A stretch of DNA of 64,000 nt, from the NCBI RefSeq assembly GCF_029227855.1, contig NZ_CP074356.1; one strand, written 5' to 3'. Positions 1 to 31,090 of this stretch are shown in pieces; position 1 is the stretch's first letter; each line of letters begins with the position of its first letter. The notes beneath the pieces are model-generated. The model worked only from the letters and a program-made list of their open reading frames with translations. It did no database searches and was not told the origin of the DNA. Source of the DNA: Escherichia coli. GTDB taxonomy: Bacteria; Pseudomonadota; Gammaproteobacteria; Enterobacterales; Enterobacteriaceae. The position numbers were made by a program, and so were the translations under genes.

Positions 1-1520
1 AATACGGGTATTACATTCGTTTTCTTATTTATTACCCACGGTGGAGCGACAAATAGCTCCGGCAACATATCCGCAGTGGCGTATTCACATTCTTCAGCGA
101 CTAACTGAGTACGACATTCAGATAAGATGCCTGCCGCTTTAGCATTAACCCAGGGAATGACGTCAGTGACTAAATCTGGCGTGGCGGTAATCAGTTTGAC
201 AAGCGCTTTACGCCACTGTGCATCTTCATGTATTGCCAGTAAAGTTGCATAAGCGGCAAGAGCCGCAGCGGGATGTTTTTGACAGGCTTTGCTTAAGTAT
301 TCCAGGTGCTTTTTCTTGCCAATTACACCGAGGATCAGAATTTGAATCGCATCCGGGTGATTCGTTTTCCATAGCCATTTGACAAGATCTTCAGTCTCGC
401 TGATGCGCTCGAAGAGATAAGTGGGATTGTCAGAATGCTCTTCCGTAAACTCAAGAAGTATCCGGCTTACACCGCGCACCCCATTATTTGCCAGCAACAT
501 TGCCAGATAAGCGCGAAAATCATGATACAACGGTGGGAAGTCGTATTTTTCTGCTGTAGTCAGAGCGGCGTCATCGGTTACCACCAGTCTTAACCAGGTC
601 ATCGCCGGAACGTTTTGATCTGCATAACGTAGCGCCATAGCATTGGCAATATCCGGGCGTTCAGGGAGCAGTAACGCCGCAAAAGGTTGCCGTGCTGGGG
701 ATAGCGAGGGAATAGCAGCGAGAACTTTATCTACACAGCGTTGCCACTCATCTTCTGAAGCGAGTGAAAGATGATGACATAGACGTTGATGCCAGTTCGG
801 TAGTGATTCTGCTTTGAGATCAGGGGGAATAATGGTGGTGACGTCGGCTTTTACTGGTTTATATTTGAGTTGAAGAGCGAGAAGGGCGATTTCAACGGTA
901 GTTTCCAGACCACAGCGAATGACTAAGTCATCGACCAGTTCATCTGTAGAGTAAGAGTTCCATAAATTCCAGAGCAATGCCGCATCAGATTGTATACTTC
1001 CTGTTTGTTGATTATTCAGAATTCGCCTTTGTAACTCGGCAAACGCCAGCTGCCAGTTTTCAGGATAAGAGCGGTAATTATTGTCGGGGTCATATGCCCT
1101 GGTGTTATTCGCGATGCGCTTCCATATTTGGCCATCTTTGTACAGATAATTGATCTCTCTGGGGCGAGAGCGATGAGGAAAAGCAAATCGATTAATATCG
1201 CCAGTTACCGGAATGACTGCATCATCAGCCACCCATGGGCGTTTGTTTTTACTCTCAGGGGAGGTTTCAACTTCAGGAGTGGCTTTGGTGATGGGGGGGA
1301 TATGCACGTTTGCTAAAGCATTTTCCACATAGCCTTTTTTCGTTTTCTCTGCGATCAGCTTAAGCTCCGCTTTTGCCGCTGCCGCAGCATCCGCAAAACT
1401 TTTTACCTGGTTTTGCCCTTTGGTGCCAACTTTTCCCCAACAGATATGCAACTCGTTTCCCTGTTGCTCCACCGCCCAGAATTTATGTGATTTTTCGTCC
1501 TGAAAGATAAAGTGCCTCAT
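1..1520 (-). CDS. molR: MolR-like protein, N-terminal part with WGR-type domain; gene runs off the window start
   Basis: Manual minus-strand translation from the ATG at 1518-1520 gives MRHFIFQDEKSHKFWAVEQQGNELHICWGKVGTKGQ (WGR-like); the same frame is still open at positions 3-59 (..ELFVAPPWVINKKTNVIPV). Not in the ORF track because no stop lies inside the window. Internal frame continuity was not checked codon by codon. Confidence 0.55.
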   Translation of the reverse strand, partial: MRHFIFQDEKSHKFWAVEQQGNELHICWGKVGTKGQNQVKSFADAAAAAKAELKLIAEKTKKGYVENALANVHIPPITKATPEVETSPESKNKRPWVADDAVIPVTGDINRFAFPHRSRPREINYLYKDGQIWKRIANNTRAYDPDNNYRSYPENWQLAFAELQRRILNNQQTGSIQSDAALLWNLWNSYSTDELVDDLVIRCGLETTVEIALLALQLKYKPVKADVTTIIPPDLKAESLPNWHQRLCHHLSLASEDEWQRCVDKVLAAIPSLSPARQPFAALLLPERPDIANAMALRYADQNVPAMTWLRLVVTDDAALTTAEKYDFPPLYHDFRAYLAMLLANNGVRGVSRILLEFTEEHSDNPTYLFERISETEDLVKWLWKTNHPDAIQILILGVIGKKKHLEYLSKACQKHPAAALAAYATLLAIHEDAQWRKALVKLITATPDLVTDVIPWVNAKAAGILSECRTQLVAEECEYATADMLPELFVAPPWVINKKTNVIPV

Positions 1521-1619
1521 TCTGCATCCCTGTAATTTTATCCAGTTGAATGCTGATGCTACCAGTATTTATGCGGGTTAGAGAGAGACAAAATCGCAAG
1601 AAAACAACTTTAGGAATTT

Positions 1620-2330
1620 ATAAATAAATATCCTCCGGCATAGCCGGAGGTTTTTCAAATGCGCCTATAAGGCTCTCTTACCAGCCGCGCCCTAACAGGC
1701 GCACACGATCTGACATTTGCATCCAACTTCGTTACTTACGGCCCGTAAACGGGCTGCCCGGATAGGGAATCGATAACTGCTCTCCCATTTTATCCTCTTC
1801 AAGCTGGTGCTTTATGTAATCCTGTATCTTCGCCGTGTTCTTACCCACCGTATCGACGTAATACCCTCTGCACCAGAACTCCCTGTTCCTGTATTTGAAT
1901 TTCAAATCACCAAACTGCTCGTAAAGCATCAGACTGCTTTTCCCTTTCAGATATCCCATAAAGCCTGATACGCTCATTTTGGGCGGGATCTCCACAAGCA
2001 TATGGATATGATCTGCACAGCATTCAGCTTCCAGAATCCGTACACTTTTCCACTCACACAGCTTTCTCAAAATACAGCCTATTGCTCTACGCTTCTCTCT
2101 GTAGAACACCTGTCTTCGGTATTTTGGCGCAAATACTATGTGATATTTACAGTTCCATCGGGTGTGCGCTAAGCTCTTTTCGTTCCCCATTGGGACCCCC
2201 TTTTGATTTCTTGTTTGACACTTGCAGTTGCCAGACCGCAAGGTGTTTTAACAAATCAAAAGGGGTTTTAATAACTGGCTCAAAGCTGAAAGCTTTCCGG
2301 AACCCCCAGCCTAGCTGGGGGTTTTCTGTG
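1620..2330 (-). mobile_element. IS200 insertion sequence (IS200/IS605 family), ends approximate
   Basis: Carries a 152-aa HuH Y1 transposase gene; perfect palindrome aacccccagcctagctgggggtt at 2301-2323 plus a downstream aaaacccctttt / aaaaggggg pairing upstream of tnpA match the IS200 left-end structures; hairpin cctccggcatagccggagg at 1632-1650 near the other end. Boundaries inferred from the expected ~0.7 kb element size, not from alignment. Confidence 0.7.
1732..2190 (-). CDS. tnpA: IS200 transposase TnpA (HuH single-strand DNA transposase)
   Basis: ORF 1732..2241; start placed at the internal Met (MGNEKSLAHTRWNCKYHIVFAPKYRR..), giving 152 aa; HuH motif HIHMLVEIPP and conserved Tyr-containing C-terminal region. 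Confidence 0.85.
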   Translation of the reverse strand: MGNEKSLAHTRWNCKYHIVFAPKYRRQVFYREKRRAIGCILRKLCEWKSVRILEAECCADHIHMLVEIPPKMSVSGFMGYLKGKSSLMLYEQFGDLKFKYRNREFWCRGYYVDTVGKNTAKIQDYIKHQLEEDKMGEQLSIPYPGSPFTGRK

Positions 2331-2360
2331 CACAAGAAAAGGCGCTGTCGATACAGCGCC
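2331..2360 (-). terminator. Probable rho-independent terminator of metG
   Basis: Stem ggcgctgt/acagcgcc (2341-2360) followed on the minus strand by a T-rich run (complement of cacaagaaaa at 2331-2340), just downstream of the metG stop. Confidence 0.5.
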
Positions 2361-2371
2361 TTGAAAGGAGA

Positions 2372-4405
2372 TTATTTCACCTGATGACCCGGTTTAGCAC
2401 CGGCATCCGGGCTTAGCAGGAAAATATCTTTCCCGCCAGGACCGGCAGCCATCACCATGCCTTCGGAGATACCGAAGCGCATTTTACGTGGTGCCAGGTT
2501 AGCCACCATAATGGTGTGACGACCAATCAGTGCCTGCGGATCCGGGTAAGCAGAACGAATGCCGGAGAAGACATTGCGTTTTTCACCGCCGAGATCCAGC
2601 GTCAGGCGCAGCAGTTTGTCGGAACCTTCAACAAACTCTGCGTTTTCAATCAACGCCACGCGCAGGTCAACTTTGGCGAAGTCGTCAAAGGTGATGGTTT
2701 CCTGAATCGGATCATCTGCCAGTGGGCCAGTTACTGGCGCGGCAGTGGCTTTCACTTCTTCTTTAGAGGCTTCCACCAGTGCTTCAACCTGCTTCATGTC
2801 GATGCGGTTATACAGCGCTTTGAACGGATTCACTTTATGGCCCAACAGCGGTTGCTGGATACCATCCCAGGTCAGTTCCGTATTAAGGAATGCTTCTGCA
2901 CGCTCGGTCAGTTTCGGCAGTACCGGCTTCAGGTAAGTCATCAGCACGCGGAACAGGTTTATGCCCATCGAGCAAATTGCCTGCAGGTCGGCATCGCGGC
3001 CTTCCTGTTTTGCGACTACCCACGGAGCCTGTTCATCGACATAACGGTTAGCAAGATCAGCCAGCGCCATGATTTCGCGGATCGCTTTACCAAATTCGCG
3101 GCTTTCCCACGCTTCACCAATCACTTCAGCGGCATCAGTGAAGGTTTTGTACAGTTGCGGGTCAGCCAGTTCGCTTGCCAGCACACCGTCAAAACGCTTG
3201 TTGATAAAGCCCGCGTTACGGGAGGCCAGGTTAACCACTTTATTCACGATATCGGCATTCACACGCTGAACGAAATCTTCCAGGTTGAGATCGATATCAT
3301 CAATGCGCGAAGAGAGTTTCGCAGTGTAGTAGTAACGCAGGCTGTCGGCGTCAAAATGATTCAGCCAGGTGCTGGCCTTAATAAAGGTACCGCGAGACTT
3401 AGACATCTTCGCGCCGTTCACCGTCACATAGCCATGAACAAACAGGTTAGTCGGCTTGCGGAAGTTGCTGCCTTCCAGCATTGCTGGCCAGAACAGGCTG
3501 TGGAAGTAAACAATATCTTTGCCGATGAAGTGATACAGCTCGGCGGTGGAATCTTTCTTCCAGTATTCATCGAAGCTGGTGGTGTCGCCGCGTTTGTCGC
3601 ACAGATTCTTGAAGGAACCCATGTAGCCAATCGGCGCATCCAGCCAGACGTAGAAATATTTGCCCGGTGCGTTCGGAATTTCAAAACCGAAGTATGGCGC
3701 ATCGCGGGAGATATCCCACTGTTGCAGGCCAGATTCAAACCACTCCTGCATTTTGTTTGCCACTTGCTCCTGCAACGCGCCGCTGCGGGTCCATGCCTGC
3801 AACATTTCGCTGAAAGAGGGCAGATCAAAGAAGAAGTGTTCAGAATCACGCATTACCGGCGTAGCACCAGAAACCACCGATTTAGGCTCGATCAGCTCAG
3901 TCGGGCTGTAGGTCGCGCCACAAACTTCACAGTTATCGCCGTATTGATCCGGGGATTTACATTTCGGGCAGGTGCCTTTTACAAAACGGTCCGGCAGGAA
4001 CATGCCTTTTTCCGGATCGTACAGCTGAGAGATAGTGCGGTTTTTAATAAAACCGTTCTCTTTCAGGCGAGAATAAATAAGTTCTGACAACTGGCGGTTC
4101 TCTTCGCTGTGCGTCGAGTGATAGTTGTCATAGCTGATGTTAAAGCCTGCGAAATCAGTCTGATGCTCCTGACTCATTTCGCCAATCATCTGCTCCGGGG
4201 TGATACCAAGCTGCTGAGCTTTCAGCATGATCGGTGTGCCGTGGGCATCGTCGGCGCAAATGAAGTTGACCTCGTGGCCGCGCATTCGCTGGTAACGGAC
4301 CCAGACATCAGCCTGGATGTGCTCCAGCATATGGCCGAGGTGGATTGAGCCGTTAGCGTACGGCAGTGCGCACGTCACCAGAATTTTCTTCGCGACTTGA
4401 GTCAT
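2372..4405 (-). CDS. metG: Methionine--tRNA ligase
   Basis: 680-aa ORF with class I HLGH (HIGH) and KMSKS motifs; start placed at [12 protein letters not shown] to give 677 aa. Confidence 0.95.
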
Positions 4406-26795: not shown

Positions 26796-26900
26796 AACCG
26801 CGGGCCAGCGTGATGCTGGCCCGGTATTGTGCAAAACAGATCATTCACCAATGGTCCCCCTTCGTTTACACTAGCCACAATTGAATATGGGTAAATGACG

Positions 26901-27674
26901 ATGAATTCATTCGAGCGAAGGAATAAGATCATCCAATTAGTGAATGAACAGGGAACCGTGCTTGTTCAGGATCTGGCGGGAGTATTTGCTGCCTCGGAAG
27001 CGACAATCCGTGCCGATTTGCGCTTTCTCGAACAAAAAGGCGTGGTTACGCGCTTTCATGGCGGTGCGGCGAAAATAATGTCCGGTAATAGTGAAACCGA
27101 GACCCAGGAAGTCGGGTTTAAAGAGCGATTTCAGCTCGCCAGCGCGCCAAAAAACAGAATAGCGCAGGCGGCAGTCAAAATGATCCACGAAGGGATGACC
27201 GTTATTCTCGACAGCGGAAGTACGACAATGCTTATCGCCGAAGGATTAATGACCGCCAAAAATATCACGGTGATTACCAACAGTCTCCCGGCAGCATTTG
27301 CCCTTTCCGAAAATAAAGACATTACTCTGGTCGTCTGTGGTGGGACCGTCCGCCATAAAACACGCTCGATGCATGGTTCCATTGCCGAGCGTTCATTGCA
27401 GGATATTAATGCCGATTTAATGTTTGTCGGTGCTGATGGTATTGATGCGGTTAATGGTATTACGACCTTTAATGAAGGTTATTCGATTAGCGGGGCGATG
27501 GTTACAGCCGCAAATAAAGTGATTGCCGTTCTCGATTCATCGAAATTTAATCGTCGCGGTTTTAATCAGGTACTGCCAATCGAAAAAATTGACATTATTA
27601 TTACCGATGATGCCGTGTCAGAGGTGGATAAACTGGCATTGCAGAAGACACGGGTGAAATTAATTACGGTGTAG
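26901..27674 (+). CDS. gatR: DeoR-family repressor of the galactitol operon (uninterrupted)
   Basis: ORF 26895..27674; start placed at MNSFERRNKIIQL (alternative start two codons upstream); DeoR HTH plus sugar-binding domain; reading frame is continuous. Confidence 0.85.
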   Translation: MNSFERRNKIIQLVNEQGTVLVQDLAGVFAASEATIRADLRFLEQKGVVTRFHGGAAKIMSGNSETETQEVGFKERFQLASAPKNRIAQAAVKMIHEGMTVILDSGSTTMLIAEGLMTAKNITVITNSLPAAFALSENKDITLVVCGGTVRHKTRSMHGSIAERSLQDINADLMFVGADGIDAVNGITTFNEGYSISGAMVTAANKVIAVLDSSKFNRRGFNQVLPIEKIDIIITDDAVSEVDKLALQKTRVKLITV

Positions 27675-27685
27675 TATTGCTCTGT

Positions 27686-27719
27686 ATGCCGGATAAAGTT
27701 TTTACACCGCATCCGGCAT
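27686..27719. repeat. REP-like palindromic element / terminator
   Basis: atgccggat (27686-27694) ... atccggcat (27711-27719). Confidence 0.4.
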
Positions 27720-27755
27720 TACGGATTCTCCCTGGTTCAAGAGAGAATAGTGTGA

Positions 27756-28655
27756 TTAACGCAACAATGGGCAATCTGGTGGTAATCGACAACGCAACGC
27801 CGCCGGAAGTATTTCAATATGAAAGTTTTGTCCGCTCAACGGTTCGCCATCAAGATTAAAAGTGATTTCGTGTGGGGCTTGTATATCAAACCACGACGAA
27901 GCGCCTTCGATAATATTCGGGTTATCTTCGTCAGATTTTAATGTTGATACGAGAGCCGGAAGAATTTCATCGCCGGTAAAAATGCGCAGTTGCAGCAAGC
28001 CATCGTTAATTAACGCGTTCGGGCACAATTGCTGACCGCCACCGGCCTGACGCCCGTTACCAATACCAATGACCAGGGCGTCACCTTGCCAGTGAAAGTT
28101 TTCACCGCGGATCTCACAACGGTCCGGTTGCAGAGTATCCATGCGCATTAAGCCATGAATGATGTAAGAGACGCCACCCAGCGCGGCTTTTAATTTTTCC
28201 GGCGTTTCTGTGGTAATACGCGTCCCAAATCCGCCTGTCGCCATATTAATAAAACAGGTTTGTTTGTTGACCTGCGCCATATCTATCGCAATGGCGTCAC
28301 CGGCAATTGCCAGTTTCAGCGCCTTATCCAGTGCCTCAGGAATCCTTACACTGGTGGCAAAATCATTGGCGGTTCCTAATGGCAAAATTCCTAGCGCGGG
28401 TATGTCATCCCCCTCACACTGAATCAACGCCGTAGAAACTTCATTAATGGTGCCATCGCCACCACCGGCAATCACCGTTGCGACGCCCAACTTCCGGGCC
28501 TCCTCTACATATCGTGCGGCATCGCCTTTCTCCCAGGTGACCCGCACATGGATCGTCATTCCTTCCTCACGCAACAGCATAATTGCTTCGCGCAATGGTA
28601 AATTGTCAGTACTTTTGCCATTAAGAATCAGTAAGCTGGCGGGAAATTCTGCCAT
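27756..28655 (-). CDS. yegS: Lipid kinase YegS (diacylglycerol kinase catalytic domain family)
   Basis: 299-aa ORF with DAGK-type nucleotide-binding pattern (..[13 protein letters not shown]..). Confidence 0.85.
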
Positions 28656-29069
28656 GATCGTATGTGCCTTTATGATTGGTCTGTAGATAGTGTATAGCAG
28701 AAAAGAAAAGGTGGAGTCAGAACAGGATGAAAGTCGGAGGATAAAAAATCAGTTCAAGTATGGAGGATTCAGTGGTTACCACCAGGAGCTTGCAATGGGG
28801 ACAGTGAATGTTAACGGTAGCCACCGGTAAATTTCAAAAAAGAGCATATACCTAATATTCAACTAAACAGTGGCATCTTCAATATACTATTAAAAATATA
28901 TTAACCCCCCCATGGGGTTACCCGGAAGGGCCTCCGTGTATGTAATTCCTACTTATGTAGGAAATGTTGTACAGAACATTTATTATAATCCTATTCAATT
29001 ATAATAATCATGCCATTATTATATTTAAACACCAGAGCGTGTCGTTGGTATTTAATGGGGGAAGGTGAG

Positions 29070-29387
29070 ATGAAAAAGATAGCTGCTATATCATTAATTA
29101 GTATTTTTCTTATGTCTGGTTGTGCTGTGCATAATGATGAAACAAGTATCGGTAAATTTGGTCTTGCATATAAAAGTAATATTCAGCGTAAACTCGATAA
29201 CCAATACTACACCGAAGCCGAAGCTTCTTTAGCCAGGGGCAGAATTTCTGGTGCAGAAAATATAGTAAAAAATGATGCAGCTCATTTCTGTGTTACTCAG
29301 GGCAAAAAAATGCAGATAGTTGACCTGAAGACAGAAGGTGCAGGATTACATGGCGTCGCTCGTCTGACATTCAAATGTGGAGAGTGA
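29070..29387 (+). CDS. yegR: Small lipoprotein-like protein YegR
   Basis: ORF 29010..29387; start placed at MKKIAAISLISIFLMSGC (105 aa; lipobox LMSGC). Confidence 0.7.
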   Translation: MKKIAAISLISIFLMSGCAVHNDETSIGKFGLAYKSNIQRKLDNQYYTEAEASLARGRISGAENIVKNDAAHFCVTQGKKMQIVDLKTEGAGLHGVARLTFKCGE

Positions 29388-29557
29388 GAATATTTTTTGG
29401 TAAGCGTCAAACATGCGCGTTCTGATTGTGCGTAGCCGGAACCTGTACGAGCACGATGCCGTTAAGTGAAAGGCATCGTGCTATGAAGGGGGATTCTATC
29501 GATGTGGTCAATGGAAGACGGTCACCTGGGATCAATCCGTCTCTATGGTTTATGCAC

Positions 29558-29584
29558 AAAAAATAAGCCCGTGTAAGGGAGATT
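29558..29584. other. Phage P2-type attachment core (attB) overlapping the CyaR 3' end; appears unoccupied
   Basis: Sequence aaaaaataagcccgtgtaagggagatt equals the P2 att core as recalled from memory; no ogr/P2-like genes flank it here. Confidence 0.45.
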
Positions 29585-29644
29585 ACACAGGCTAAGGAGG
29601 TGGTTCCTGGTACAGCTAGCATTTTATGGGTTATGTTTTTCAGC
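29558..29644 (-). ncRNA. cyaR: CyaR (RyeE) Hfq-dependent small RNA
   Basis: Minus strand reads GCUGAAAAACAUAACCCAUAAAAUGCUAGCUGUACCAGGAACCACCUCCUUAGCCUGUGUAAUCUCCCUUACACGGGCUUAUUUUUU, matching the CyaR sequence as recalled, including the terminal hairpin and U-tail. Confidence 0.8.
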
Positions 29645-29728
29645 GAAACAGATGATAACCTTAATAAATGCAGCTGTATGTGATCGGTTTCTAAGAATTT
29701 TCCATCCGGGAAAAATAATCGAAATTAA

Positions 29729-31090
29729 TCACTTACCGTGGGGGTTACGCGTGGTTTCCCCGGAGAAATTACGCATCAGCAGCGCGTAATTTAGCTCAAG
29801 ATCCTGCGGCACCGGGATCCACACAGTATAACCATCGCCCGGTGCGACCGGCATTGCTTCGCCTTTGGCGTTTTCCATGTGCTCAAGGGTAAAGTTAATG
29901 TTCCCTTGCGGCGTCATCAGCTCAAGGCTGTCGCCAACGGAGAATTTATTTTTCACCGCTACCGCCGCGAGGTCGCCCTTGCGCTCACTGGTAAACTCAC
30001 CAACAAACTGCTGGCGGTCAGAAACTGAATAACCGTATTCGTAGTTCTGATAATCGTCGTGAGTATGACGACGCAGGAAACCTTCGGTATAGCCACGATG
30101 CGCCAGACCTTCCAGGGTTTCCAGCAGGCTGGTATCGAATGGTTTTCCCGCAGCTGCGTCATCGATAGCTTTACGGTAAACCTGCGCGGTGCGTGCGCAA
30201 TAGTAGAAAGATTTGGTACGGCCTTCGATTTTCAGCGAATGCACGCCCATTTTGGTCAGGCGTTCAACATGGGCGATGGCGCGCAGATCTTTCGAGTTCA
30301 TGATGTAAGTGCCGTGCTCATCTTCAAACGCGGTCATATACTCGCCCGGACGCTGGGCTTCTTCGATCATAAACACTTTGTCGGTTGGTGCGCCGATCCC
30401 CAGCGTCGGTTCAACGTTTTGCACCGGAATCGGTTCGTACTTGTGTACGATGTTGCCGACGTCATCTTCTTTCCCTTCCTGGACGTTATACTCCCAGCGG
30501 CAGGCGTTGGTGCAGGTGCCCTGGTTCGGGTCGCGCTTGTTGATATAGCCAGAGAGCAGGCAGCGACCGGAGTAGGCCATGCACAGCGCGCCGTGAACGA
30601 AGATTTCGATCTCCATATCTGGCACCTGATTGCGGATCTCTTCAATCTCTTCCAGTGACAGTTCGCGAGAGAGGATCACGCGGGTCAGACCCATTTGCTG
30701 CCAGAATTTCACCGTCGCCCAGTTCACGGCGTTAGCCTGTACTGAGAGATGGATCGGCATTTCAGGGAAGTGCTCGCGCACCAGCATAATCAGCCCTGGA
30801 TCAGACATAATCAGCGCATCCGGCCCCATTTCCACCACCGGTTTCAGGTCACGGATAAAGGTTTTCAGCTTGGCGTTGTGCGGTGCAATGTTGACCACGA
30901 CATAAAACTTTTTCCCCAGCGCGTGGGCTTCATTGATGCCGAGCTGAAGATTTTCGTGGTTGAATTCGTTGTTGCGCACACGCAGGGAGTAACGCGGCTG
31001 GCCCGCATAAACAGCATCTGCGCCATAAGCGAAAGCGTAACGCATATTTTTCAGCGTTCCCGCCGGGGAAAGGAGTTCCGGTTTAAACAT
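29729..31090 (-). CDS. yegQ: Peptidase U32-family protein (tRNA hydroxylation protein TrhP / YegQ)
   Basis: 453-aa ORF with U32-family conserved Cys-rich region. Confidence 0.85.
   Translation of the reverse strand: MFKPELLSPAGTLKNMRYAFAYGADAVYAGQPRYSLRVRNNEFNHENLQLGINEAHALGKKFYVVVNIAPHNAKLKTFIRDLKPVVEMGPDALIMSDPGLIMLVREHFPEMPIHLSVQANAVNWATVKFWQQMGLTRVILSRELSLEEIEEIRNQVPDMEIEIFVHGALCMAYSGRCLLSGYINKRDPNQGTCTNACRWEYNVQEGKEDDVGNIVHKYEPIPVQNVEPTLGIGAPTDKVFMIEEAQRPGEYMTAFEDEHGTYIMNSKDLRAIAHVERLTKMGVHSLKIEGRTKSFYYCARTAQVYRKAIDDAAAGKPFDTSLLETLEGLAHRGYTEGFLRRHTHDDYQNYEYGYSVSDRQQFVGEFTSERKGDLAAVAVKNKFSVGDSLELMTPQGNINFTLEHMENAKGEAMPVAPGDGYTVWIPVPQDLELNYALLMRNFSGETTRNPHGK

Follow-up and report, generated by a model that had tools for sequence, protein, structure and literature searches.

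What occupies the 414 bp that separate yegS from yegR in Escherichia coli, and does this DNA do anything? In the window analysed here (the whole 64-kb stretch of DNA), yegS lies on the minus strand (27756-28655), with its start codon ending at 28655, and yegR on the plus strand, with its ATG at 29070 and its stop at 29387. The initial annotation had described the space between them (28656-29069) as an AT-rich non-coding gap with a perfect palindrome, and had proposed that it is a scar of past integration, a regulatory region for yegR or an unannotated small RNA. Its coordinates and composition are right: the GC content of the gap is 37.9% versus 50.6% for the 64-kb window, and falls to 21.6% in a 74-bp trough at 28830-28903. 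We consider it highly probable that the gap is a mosaic divergent control region, composed of the yegS leader, a decayed P2 attL and foreign AT-rich DNA that carries an EvgA-activated promoter of yegR.

The statement that the gap holds no open reading frame of 60 codons or more is borne out on both strands, the internal frames being only 26-46 aa long. Two longer frames merely touch its edges, a 79-aa frame antisense to yegS (28447..28686) and a 125-aa, N-terminally extended frame of yegR that starts at 29010. In the divergent allele L008 a stop codon closes this extension; gene models that give yegR 125 aa with a start inside the gap are probably wrong. Six small frames within the gap were considered (46, 35, 34, 30, 28 and 26 aa) and all were rejected as genes. 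Among them, the 30-aa frame, which starts in the palindrome CCCCATGGGG, meets a stop in K-12, the 34-aa frame loses its ATG in L008, and the 46-aa frame straddles the junction between the ancestral leader and the att site.

The gap is conserved K-12 intergenic sequence, which is the outcome that the initial annotation had named as its refutation. It occurs as a single copy in 5423 of 5426 complete E. coli genomes, and is 100% identical to that of E. coli JNEC-KY178 and 93% identical to the 405-bp version of K-12. The differences from K-12 are concentrated in about 55 bp around the palindrome and include a 9-bp indel, and the sequence from 28942 to the yegR ATG is nearly unchanged. Two alleles are more distant: L008 has approximately 80% nucleotide identity across the islet, and the megablast match of N96 covers only 30% of the gap. 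The K-12 RefSeq record annotates no feature between yegR (b2085) and yegS (b2086), neither a non-coding RNA nor a small protein, and this same record does hold recently added small genes and sRNAs elsewhere, such as evgL. One paper that might seem pertinent (PMC3708739) concerns a yegS deletion and not the space between yegS and yegR.

A feature of the gap that does matter is an 18-bp inverted repeat, TTCCTACTTATGTAGGAA, at 28946-28963 on the plus strand, which we identified as an EvgA box by pattern match and conservation. We used TTCYTACA-N2-TGTARGAA (TTCYTACANNTGTARGAA), which we take to be the consensus of the EvgA box and which we then validated on K-12 target promoters, where the regions upstream of safA, ydeP, emrK/evgA, frc and yfdX each contain it with 0-2 mismatches and it is almost absent elsewhere in the 26 kb of K-12 target loci scanned. 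TTCCTACTTATGTAGGAA deviates from it by one mismatch, a T instead of an A at box position 8. When up to 3 mismatches are allowed, 28946-28963 is the single match in the 64-kb window (0.01 matches expected from a shuffle control at up to 2 mismatches), and in 516 kb of other loci, at no more than 2 mismatches, the pattern is confined to the DNA upstream of yegR and is present there in all loci that have the gene. All ten aligned alleles, the divergent L008 and N96 included, have identical half-sites (TTCCTAC and GTAGGAA), while the 4 bp at the centre of the box vary (TTAT to AAAC), as do the flanks; compared with the DNA around it, the site is subject to purifying selection across these ten alleles.

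The arrangement around the box resembles that of proven EvgA targets. The acid-resistance promoters activated by EvgA (safA-ydeO, ydeP, emrKY/evgAS, frc and yfdX) have the 18-bp box in common, with 0-2 mismatches, and in safA and ydeP, as in yegR, a block RTCYTATTY follows exactly 24 nt after the box. The distance to the start codon is also similar to that of safA, since the box ends 106 nt before the ATG of yegR and 111 nt before that of safA. Unlike safA and ydeP, yegR has a perfect TATAAT 20 nt after the box, and unlike the other EvgA targets it has a T at box position 8 and a promoter that lies in prophage-derived DNA, divergent to yegS. With a box, selection on this site and a geometry like that of proven targets, the promoter has the hallmarks of an EvgA-regulon member. 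This accords with published data: in a review, yegR figures among the promoters to which EvgA binds strongly (PMC8147483), and induction of yegR together with ydeO, yfdX, frc and emrK has been reported (PMC5811628). Of the proposals made in the initial annotation, a regulatory region for yegR is therefore upheld, by a unique and conserved EvgA box in a safA/ydeP-like architecture and by the reported binding of EvgA.

We place the putative core promoter of yegR at 28964..29004 on the plus strand, on the basis of conserved blocks and their spacing; its blocks TGTACAGAACA and TAATC.TATTCAATTATAA are retained in L008. As RTCYTATTY lies 24 nt after the box, the -10 element is expected at TATTCA (28992-28997) or TATAAT (28984-28989), and the choice between these candidates is uncertain because the perfect TATAAT of yegR is absent from safA and ydeP. 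Transcription would start at approximately 28996-29004, and the centre of the EvgA box would be near -49.5 or -41.5, depending on the -10 element.

On the minus strand, facing yegS, a promoter scan gives two divergent promoter-like sites at 29001..29045 (ACGACA-16-TATAAT and TTTAAA-17-TATTAT), the latter of which (29029..29001) is the same as the yegS promoter proposed in a genomic SELEX study (PMC3946193). This study, conducted with RpoD (Shimada 2014), assigned RpoD promoters in both directions to the spacer between yegR and yegS and flagged it as H-NS-bound. A further promoter-like site facing yegS (TTGAAA-18-TAACAT, 28837..28808) was found by the promoter scan in the AT-rich spacer of the islet (28799..28903), a segment with 21.6% GC at 28830-28903. 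At the yegS end, the segment 28656..28742 (41% GC) is nearly invariant across E. coli alleles and is the sole part of the gap common to species that lack yegR, in which it aligns directly downstream of cyaR (E. whittamii L009, L010, L011, E. albertii and Citrobacter). By this alignment it represents the ancestral 5' region of yegS on the minus strand, comprising the leader and probably the core promoter.

Between the AT-rich spacer and the EvgA box lies a GC-rich hypervariable patch (28904..28941, 66% GC), which contains the palindrome. The palindrome supplies the stem of a terminator-like hairpin on the minus strand (28920..28902), with 7 bp, TAACCCC/GGGGTTA, and the T-rich ATATATTTTT after it, and in having a GC-rich stem before a T-rich run on one strand this hairpin is like CyaR and intrinsic terminators. 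If the palindrome and the patch were the terminator of a divergent minus-strand transcript, about 100-120 nt long and initiated at 29045-29001, they would end an sRNA or act as an attenuator in a long 5' UTR of yegS. We regard this as improbable. The stem and T-rich run do lie downstream of two promoter-like sites on the minus strand, one of them the SELEX-proposed yegS promoter (PMC3946193), and in the O157 allele this patch folds into another hairpin (z = -2.6). However, K-12, O27 and O121 have a disrupted stem, L008 lacks the segment and N96 differs, no compensatory changes accompany these losses, and in K-12 and O157 the T-run has lost length to the 9-bp indel. The fold energy of the hairpin equals that of shuffled sequences (z = 0.1), and in the 1.4 kb scanned chance alone would give 1.2 terminator-like sites. 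An Rfam search of 27500-30500 at E values up to 1 recovered nothing in the gap, its matches being CyaR and a weak REP-like naRNA4 match outside the gap, and K-12 Term-seq places no 3' end between cyaR (2167199) and gatD (2171800); as noted above, K-12 RefSeq has no ncRNA or small protein there either. While CyaR reaches 100.7 bits and its 3' end is mapped by Term-seq to 2167199, the hairpin in the gap comes without conservation, covariation, an Rfam family or a mapped end. With no Rfam match, no K-12 annotation, no Term-seq 3' end and a hairpin that is not conserved, the proposal of an unannotated small RNA is not supported.

The palindrome itself fares no better as a functional element. The initial annotation was correct that CCCCATGGGG is present at 28908-28917, where it forms a perfect 10-bp dyad 29-38 bp upstream of the EvgA box; its standing as a special feature is not sustained, for it occurs at chance frequency and varies among strains. 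A perfect 10-bp dyad so close upstream of the EvgA box invites the reading that it is bound by a dimeric protein with a role in the control of yegR or yegS, for instance as the site of a regulator or as a target of restriction/modification, all the more as GC-rich dyads are conspicuous in AT-rich DNA. This we consider very unlikely, since the window contains 62 perfect 10-bp palindromes in 64 kb, 31% of its 414-bp tiles include such a palindrome, and at least one arises in 38% of shuffles of the gap (P = 0.38). Moreover, the dyad is perfect in only four of the ten aligned alleles, being broken in K-12 (where the sequence is CCCCATGGAG), O27, O121 and O157, replaced in N96 and deleted in L008. 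The 56 bp that surround it (28890-28945) are the most variable and least conserved part of the gap, matching at 99% identity or more in only 175 of 5426 genomes, with most of the matching genomes at 80-90%; the neighbouring EvgA box, by contrast, is invariant in its half-sites. Because it occurs at chance frequency and is not conserved, the palindrome is incidental, a strain-specific accident without a conserved role.

If the gap is a mosaic control region, where did its foreign portion come from? We searched species-representative genomes for YegS and compared the resulting 57 loci (E. fergusonii not being among them) by blastn. In most Enterobacteriaceae and in the Escherichia that lack yegR (E. 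whittamii, L009, as well as L010 and L011), the trhP-cyaR segment runs straight into the yegS leader, with yegS about 90 bp downstream of cyaR, such that positions corresponding to ~29558 and ~28750 of the window abut in these empty sites. cyaR (29561..29646, minus strand; Rfam RF00112, 100.7 bits, E 2.9e-20) is accordingly the ancestral neighbour of yegS. Because it is absent from these collinear empty sites of yegR-less relatives, the 815-bp segment 28743-29557 (39.8% GC) was, as judged by alignment, inserted into the terminator of cyaR, at the core of the P2 attachment site.

Both ends of this insertion bear the marks of P2-type attachment. At the cyaR side, a perfect 27-bp P2 att core, a still-active attB, lies at 29558-29584, where it forms part of the cyaR terminator and matches the attP core of AF063097.1 (24356-24382) at 27 of 27 positions; the gap does lie next to the P2 attachment hotspot, as the initial annotation had remarked. 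Adjoining this core, 29485..29557 is a remnant of the P2 P arm with its Int arm sites and IHF site, as part of an attR-type junction, and blastn aligns 29485-29584 to P2 24279-24382 (75% over 105 bp, E 1.6e-13). In the phage database, this attP region matches in P2 and five other Peduovirus genomes (10 records including duplicate accessions). At the yegS side, exactly where homology to the yegR-less genomes stops, 28743..28769 (AAAAAATCAGTTCAAGTATGGAGGATT) is a degenerate copy of the core in direct orientation, matching at 19 of 27 positions and second only to 29558 among P2-core matches in the 64-kb window; we take it to be the attL core. It is followed at 28770..28798 by what is left of the P2 P' side, where the Cox sites adjoin the core. 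The match of 28742-28798 to P2 core plus P' is weak (71% over 58 bp, blastn E 1.8e-4 in a small search space) and was not recovered in a later search with a cut-off of 1e-3. Given this match and a core of 19/27, the case for attL rests on the N96 and E. albertii alleles, which align to P2 core plus P' over 132 bp (74%, E 8.5e-20) and 96 bp (84%, E 5.6e-22), respectively. The N96 homology extends to the P' arm at the int 3' end, stopping about 24 nt into int, and compared with N96, 61 bp of the P' side are deleted from the common E. coli allele.

The two core copies have the same orientation and the arm types are as expected, with attL on the yegS side and attR on the cyaR side. Directly before the P arm remnant, a stem-loop on the plus strand (AGCACGATGCC...GGCATCGTGCT, 29450..29482) takes the position of the P2 ogr terminator but is without a U-tract. 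Neither blastn nor tblastx detected remnants of P2 D, ogr or int in the gap or in 28799-29484, and in the absence of int, ogr and D between the att sites we speak of an att-bounded scar and not of a prophage. The comparative alignment, in which the islet is missing from yegR-less Escherichia, and the position of 28743-29069 as part of an 815-bp insertion between P2-type attL and attR remnants support the earlier suspicion of a scar of past integration. That the gap is instead old, vertically inherited intergenic DNA, AT-rich on account of its promoters and with coincidental att-like matches, is extremely improbable, because its single-copy presence in 5423 of 5426 E. coli genomes and the lack of a phage gene inside it have to be set against empty sites in three other Escherichia lineages and many genera, att homology at both ends in the right relative orientation and arm type, other low-GC cargo at the same junction elsewhere, and modern P2-like prophages that still integrate at the adjacent core.

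The insertion that encloses yegR shares its site, the 27-bp core in the cyaR terminator, with the attL and attR of P2 and with the cryptic P2 remnant PR-X (ogrK-yegZ) of K-12, and its arms are arranged as in P2 att junctions: the cyaR end carries the P arm, the IHF site and the core, the yegS end a core plus P'. PR-X has ogrK and yegZ, which are absent from this window, whereas the yegR-enclosing remnant has a 19/27 attL core and no int, ogr or D; it is older than PR-X and lies inside the PR-X junction. The order in K-12 is cyaR core, P arm, ogrK, yegZ (D'), partial core, older P arm and yegR, and by this order PR-X is a second, younger layer at the site. The older remnant is absent from the K-12 annotation, in which PR-X covers only ogrK-yegZ, and from the literature searched, and it may not have been described before. 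Likewise, our literature search found no direct published statement on cyaR and the phage P2 attachment site.

The junction of cyaR and yegS has been used repeatedly and with varied cargo: cdtABC in E. albertii, SseK/NleB with CesT in Salmonella diarizonae, an addiction-module antidote protein (of a probable toxin-antitoxin pair) in Kluyvera and a WapI-like immunity protein in Citrobacter. Among such phage-delivered cargo islets ('morons'), a close parallel to the E. coli islet is the cdtABC islet of E. albertii, likewise a low-GC insert between the cyaR core and a second core beside yegS, the attL side of which is homologous to that of E. coli up to window position 28798. It differs in that its cargo is a toxin operon and not a 105-aa lipoprotein under EvgA control, and that its attL core matches at 23 of 27 positions compared to 19 of 27 in E. 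coli, where the attL side is also shortened by the 61-bp deletion. Modern phages use the same place. Among 80 yegR-containing P2-like prophage contigs in IMG/VR, 79 have a P2-type int ~270 bp downstream of yegR on the opposite strand, and 68 have the perfect 27-bp att core between yegR and int; an integrase also abuts yegR in an O121 strain and in the phage record vB_EcoM-720R8.

This leaves yegR itself, which encodes a 105-aa lipoprotein (29070..29387, plus strand) with a signal peptide and a lipobox ending in LMSGC, has a GC content of 38% and is named 'lipoprotein YegR' in RefSeq. The YegR family is narrow; the database carries the precomputed label PF27694 for it, and our search of YegR against Pfam profiles gave no significant match. 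Distant homologues are few and are located in an IS-rich part of an Enterobacter genome and at an unrelated site in the chromosome, and no EvgA box is found upstream of the YegR homologues in Enterobacter L065 and in L068. In the islet, yegR occupies the slot of P2 ogr and is transcribed in the same direction as ogr. Neither the phage database nor IMG/VR contains a phage that carries yegR internally: in all 80 IMG/VR contigs and in both phage-database records that contain yegR, the gene is present only as host flank. Our literature search found no paper that treats yegR as phage-derived. We lean towards the view that yegR and its EvgA-controlled promoter are domesticated cargo of an ancient P2-like phage, an origin that we infer from the position of the gene only.

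In the scenario that we propose for the mosaic control region, an ancient P2-like prophage would have entered the chromosome at the att core in the terminator of cyaR and then decayed to the ~690 bp that now lie between the att remnants, namely the AT-rich upstream region, yegR and the stem-loop. The segment 28799-29069 is foreign AT-rich DNA that carries the yegR promoter. At mildly acidic pH, EvgS would phosphorylate EvgA, and a dimer of EvgA would bind TTCCTAC-N4-GTAGGAA at 28946-28963, abutting or overlapping the -35 region, and activate transcription of yegR from ~28996-29004. EvgA probably overcomes silencing of this AT-rich DNA by H-NS. EvgA binding, the induction of yegR and the occupancy by H-NS are taken from the literature cited above, and the regulatory link of yegR and the P2 hotspot are each established knowledge. 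No new element is needed to explain the gap, and the palindrome can be dropped.

For the biology of E. coli, the locus offers an example of regulatory capture, in which a host two-component regulator, EvgA, controls a gene in phage-derived AT-rich DNA of the H-NS type. The cyaR terminator emerges as a long-lived, layered site at which successive P2-like phages left nested scars and varied cargo. This is useful for the delimitation of prophages, as 79 of the 80 yegR-containing P2-like contigs in IMG/VR include yegR as if it were phage DNA. With yegR as the sole content between the decayed attL and attR, the 'empty' preferred P2 site of E. coli would, if the cargo reading is true, be the attR of an older remnant and therefore not a naive attB, and the P-arm Int and IHF sites beside the core could affect the efficiency or orientation of new P2-like integration and excision.

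The cyaR sRNA gene (CyaR; Rfam match, 100.7 bits) lies on the minus strand of the window at 29561-29646, and its terminator contains a perfect 27-bp P2 att core (29558-29584). Since the ogrK/yegZ remnant present in K-12 is absent from the window, the cyaR site is here 'unoccupied' by the younger prophage layer. K-12 carries remnants nested one inside another: at about 3800-3990 of the K-12 locus (L001, alignment A3), yegZ (D') is followed by a partial att core, CTACACGGGCTTATTTTTTT, and then by older P-arm sequence, the same one that adjoins the core in the window. The older P arm behind the partial core after yegZ indicates that the annotated cryptic prophage PR-X (the ogrK-yegZ remnant) went into the older attR.

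The cyaR-yegS junction occupied by the yegR islet holds other cargo in other genera and species. The insert at this junction in E. albertii NBRC 107761 (L012), limited by att cores matching at 25/27 positions at 518 and 23/27 at 3887, retains a well-preserved P2 P' arm and carries a cdtA-cdtB-cdtC-like operon (1520-3662; 258, 269 and 181 aa; assigned by eye). The 2.8-kb, 38% GC insert of Salmonella enterica subsp. diarizonae (L026) holds genes for an SseK/NleB-family effector (E 2e-177) and a CesT-family chaperone at 1414-2933. The same junction encodes an addiction-module antidote protein in Kluyvera, which probably belongs to a toxin-antitoxin pair, and a WapI-like immunity protein in one Citrobacter genome. 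Of the 80 IMG/VR contigs with yegR (L076-L155), 79 are P2-like prophage predictions in which yegR is host flank, located at the extreme contig edge in most of them; the IMG/VR prophage limits are drawn too far, beyond attL.

Within E. coli and close relatives, a second, divergent allele spans the whole islet (3290-4000 in L008; 4000-4800 in L070, E. coli N96). The L008 islet has only ~80% nucleotide identity (YegR, 92% aa identity), whereas identity reaches 99% for the protein of the flanking trhP and 96% for YegS, and the L008 and N96 loci are unlike each other too. Such divergence between similar flanks suggests that the alleles are old and balanced, or else that recombination has replaced one with another.

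In many automatic gene calls yegR begins further upstream, with the ATG at window 29010, which yields a 125-aa YegR (29010-29387, plus strand; protein cluster P0001, 1366 members). The resulting extension, ahead of the signal peptide, begins at the inferred transcription start site or a few nt past it, and its frame is shut by a stop in L008; the 29010 start is probably mis-called. A perfect 11-bp stem, AGCACGATGCC/GGCATCGTGCT, lies 3' of yegR (29450-29482, plus strand) and is kept in K-12. It occupies the same position as the P2 ogr terminator but lacks a U-tract. On the other side of yegS, the window has an intact gatR (26895-27674, plus strand; 259 aa, DeoR family), unlike K-12 MG1655, where gatR is interrupted by IS3E. 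The short spacer between gatR and yegS holds a weak naRNA4/REP-like hairpin match (27687-27722, plus strand; 22.8 bits, E 0.42, below gathering), probably a REP element.

Among the clear homologues of YegR, the most distant, at 52% identity, is encoded in Enterobacter sp. BIDMC 29 (L065, 5001-5318), in IS-rich surroundings beside genes for an omptin and an MFS transporter, and the EvgA box, the 18-bp inverted repeat ahead of yegR in the window, was not found upstream of this homologue. On the basis of this IS-rich setting without an EvgA box, the YegR family appears to be mobile.
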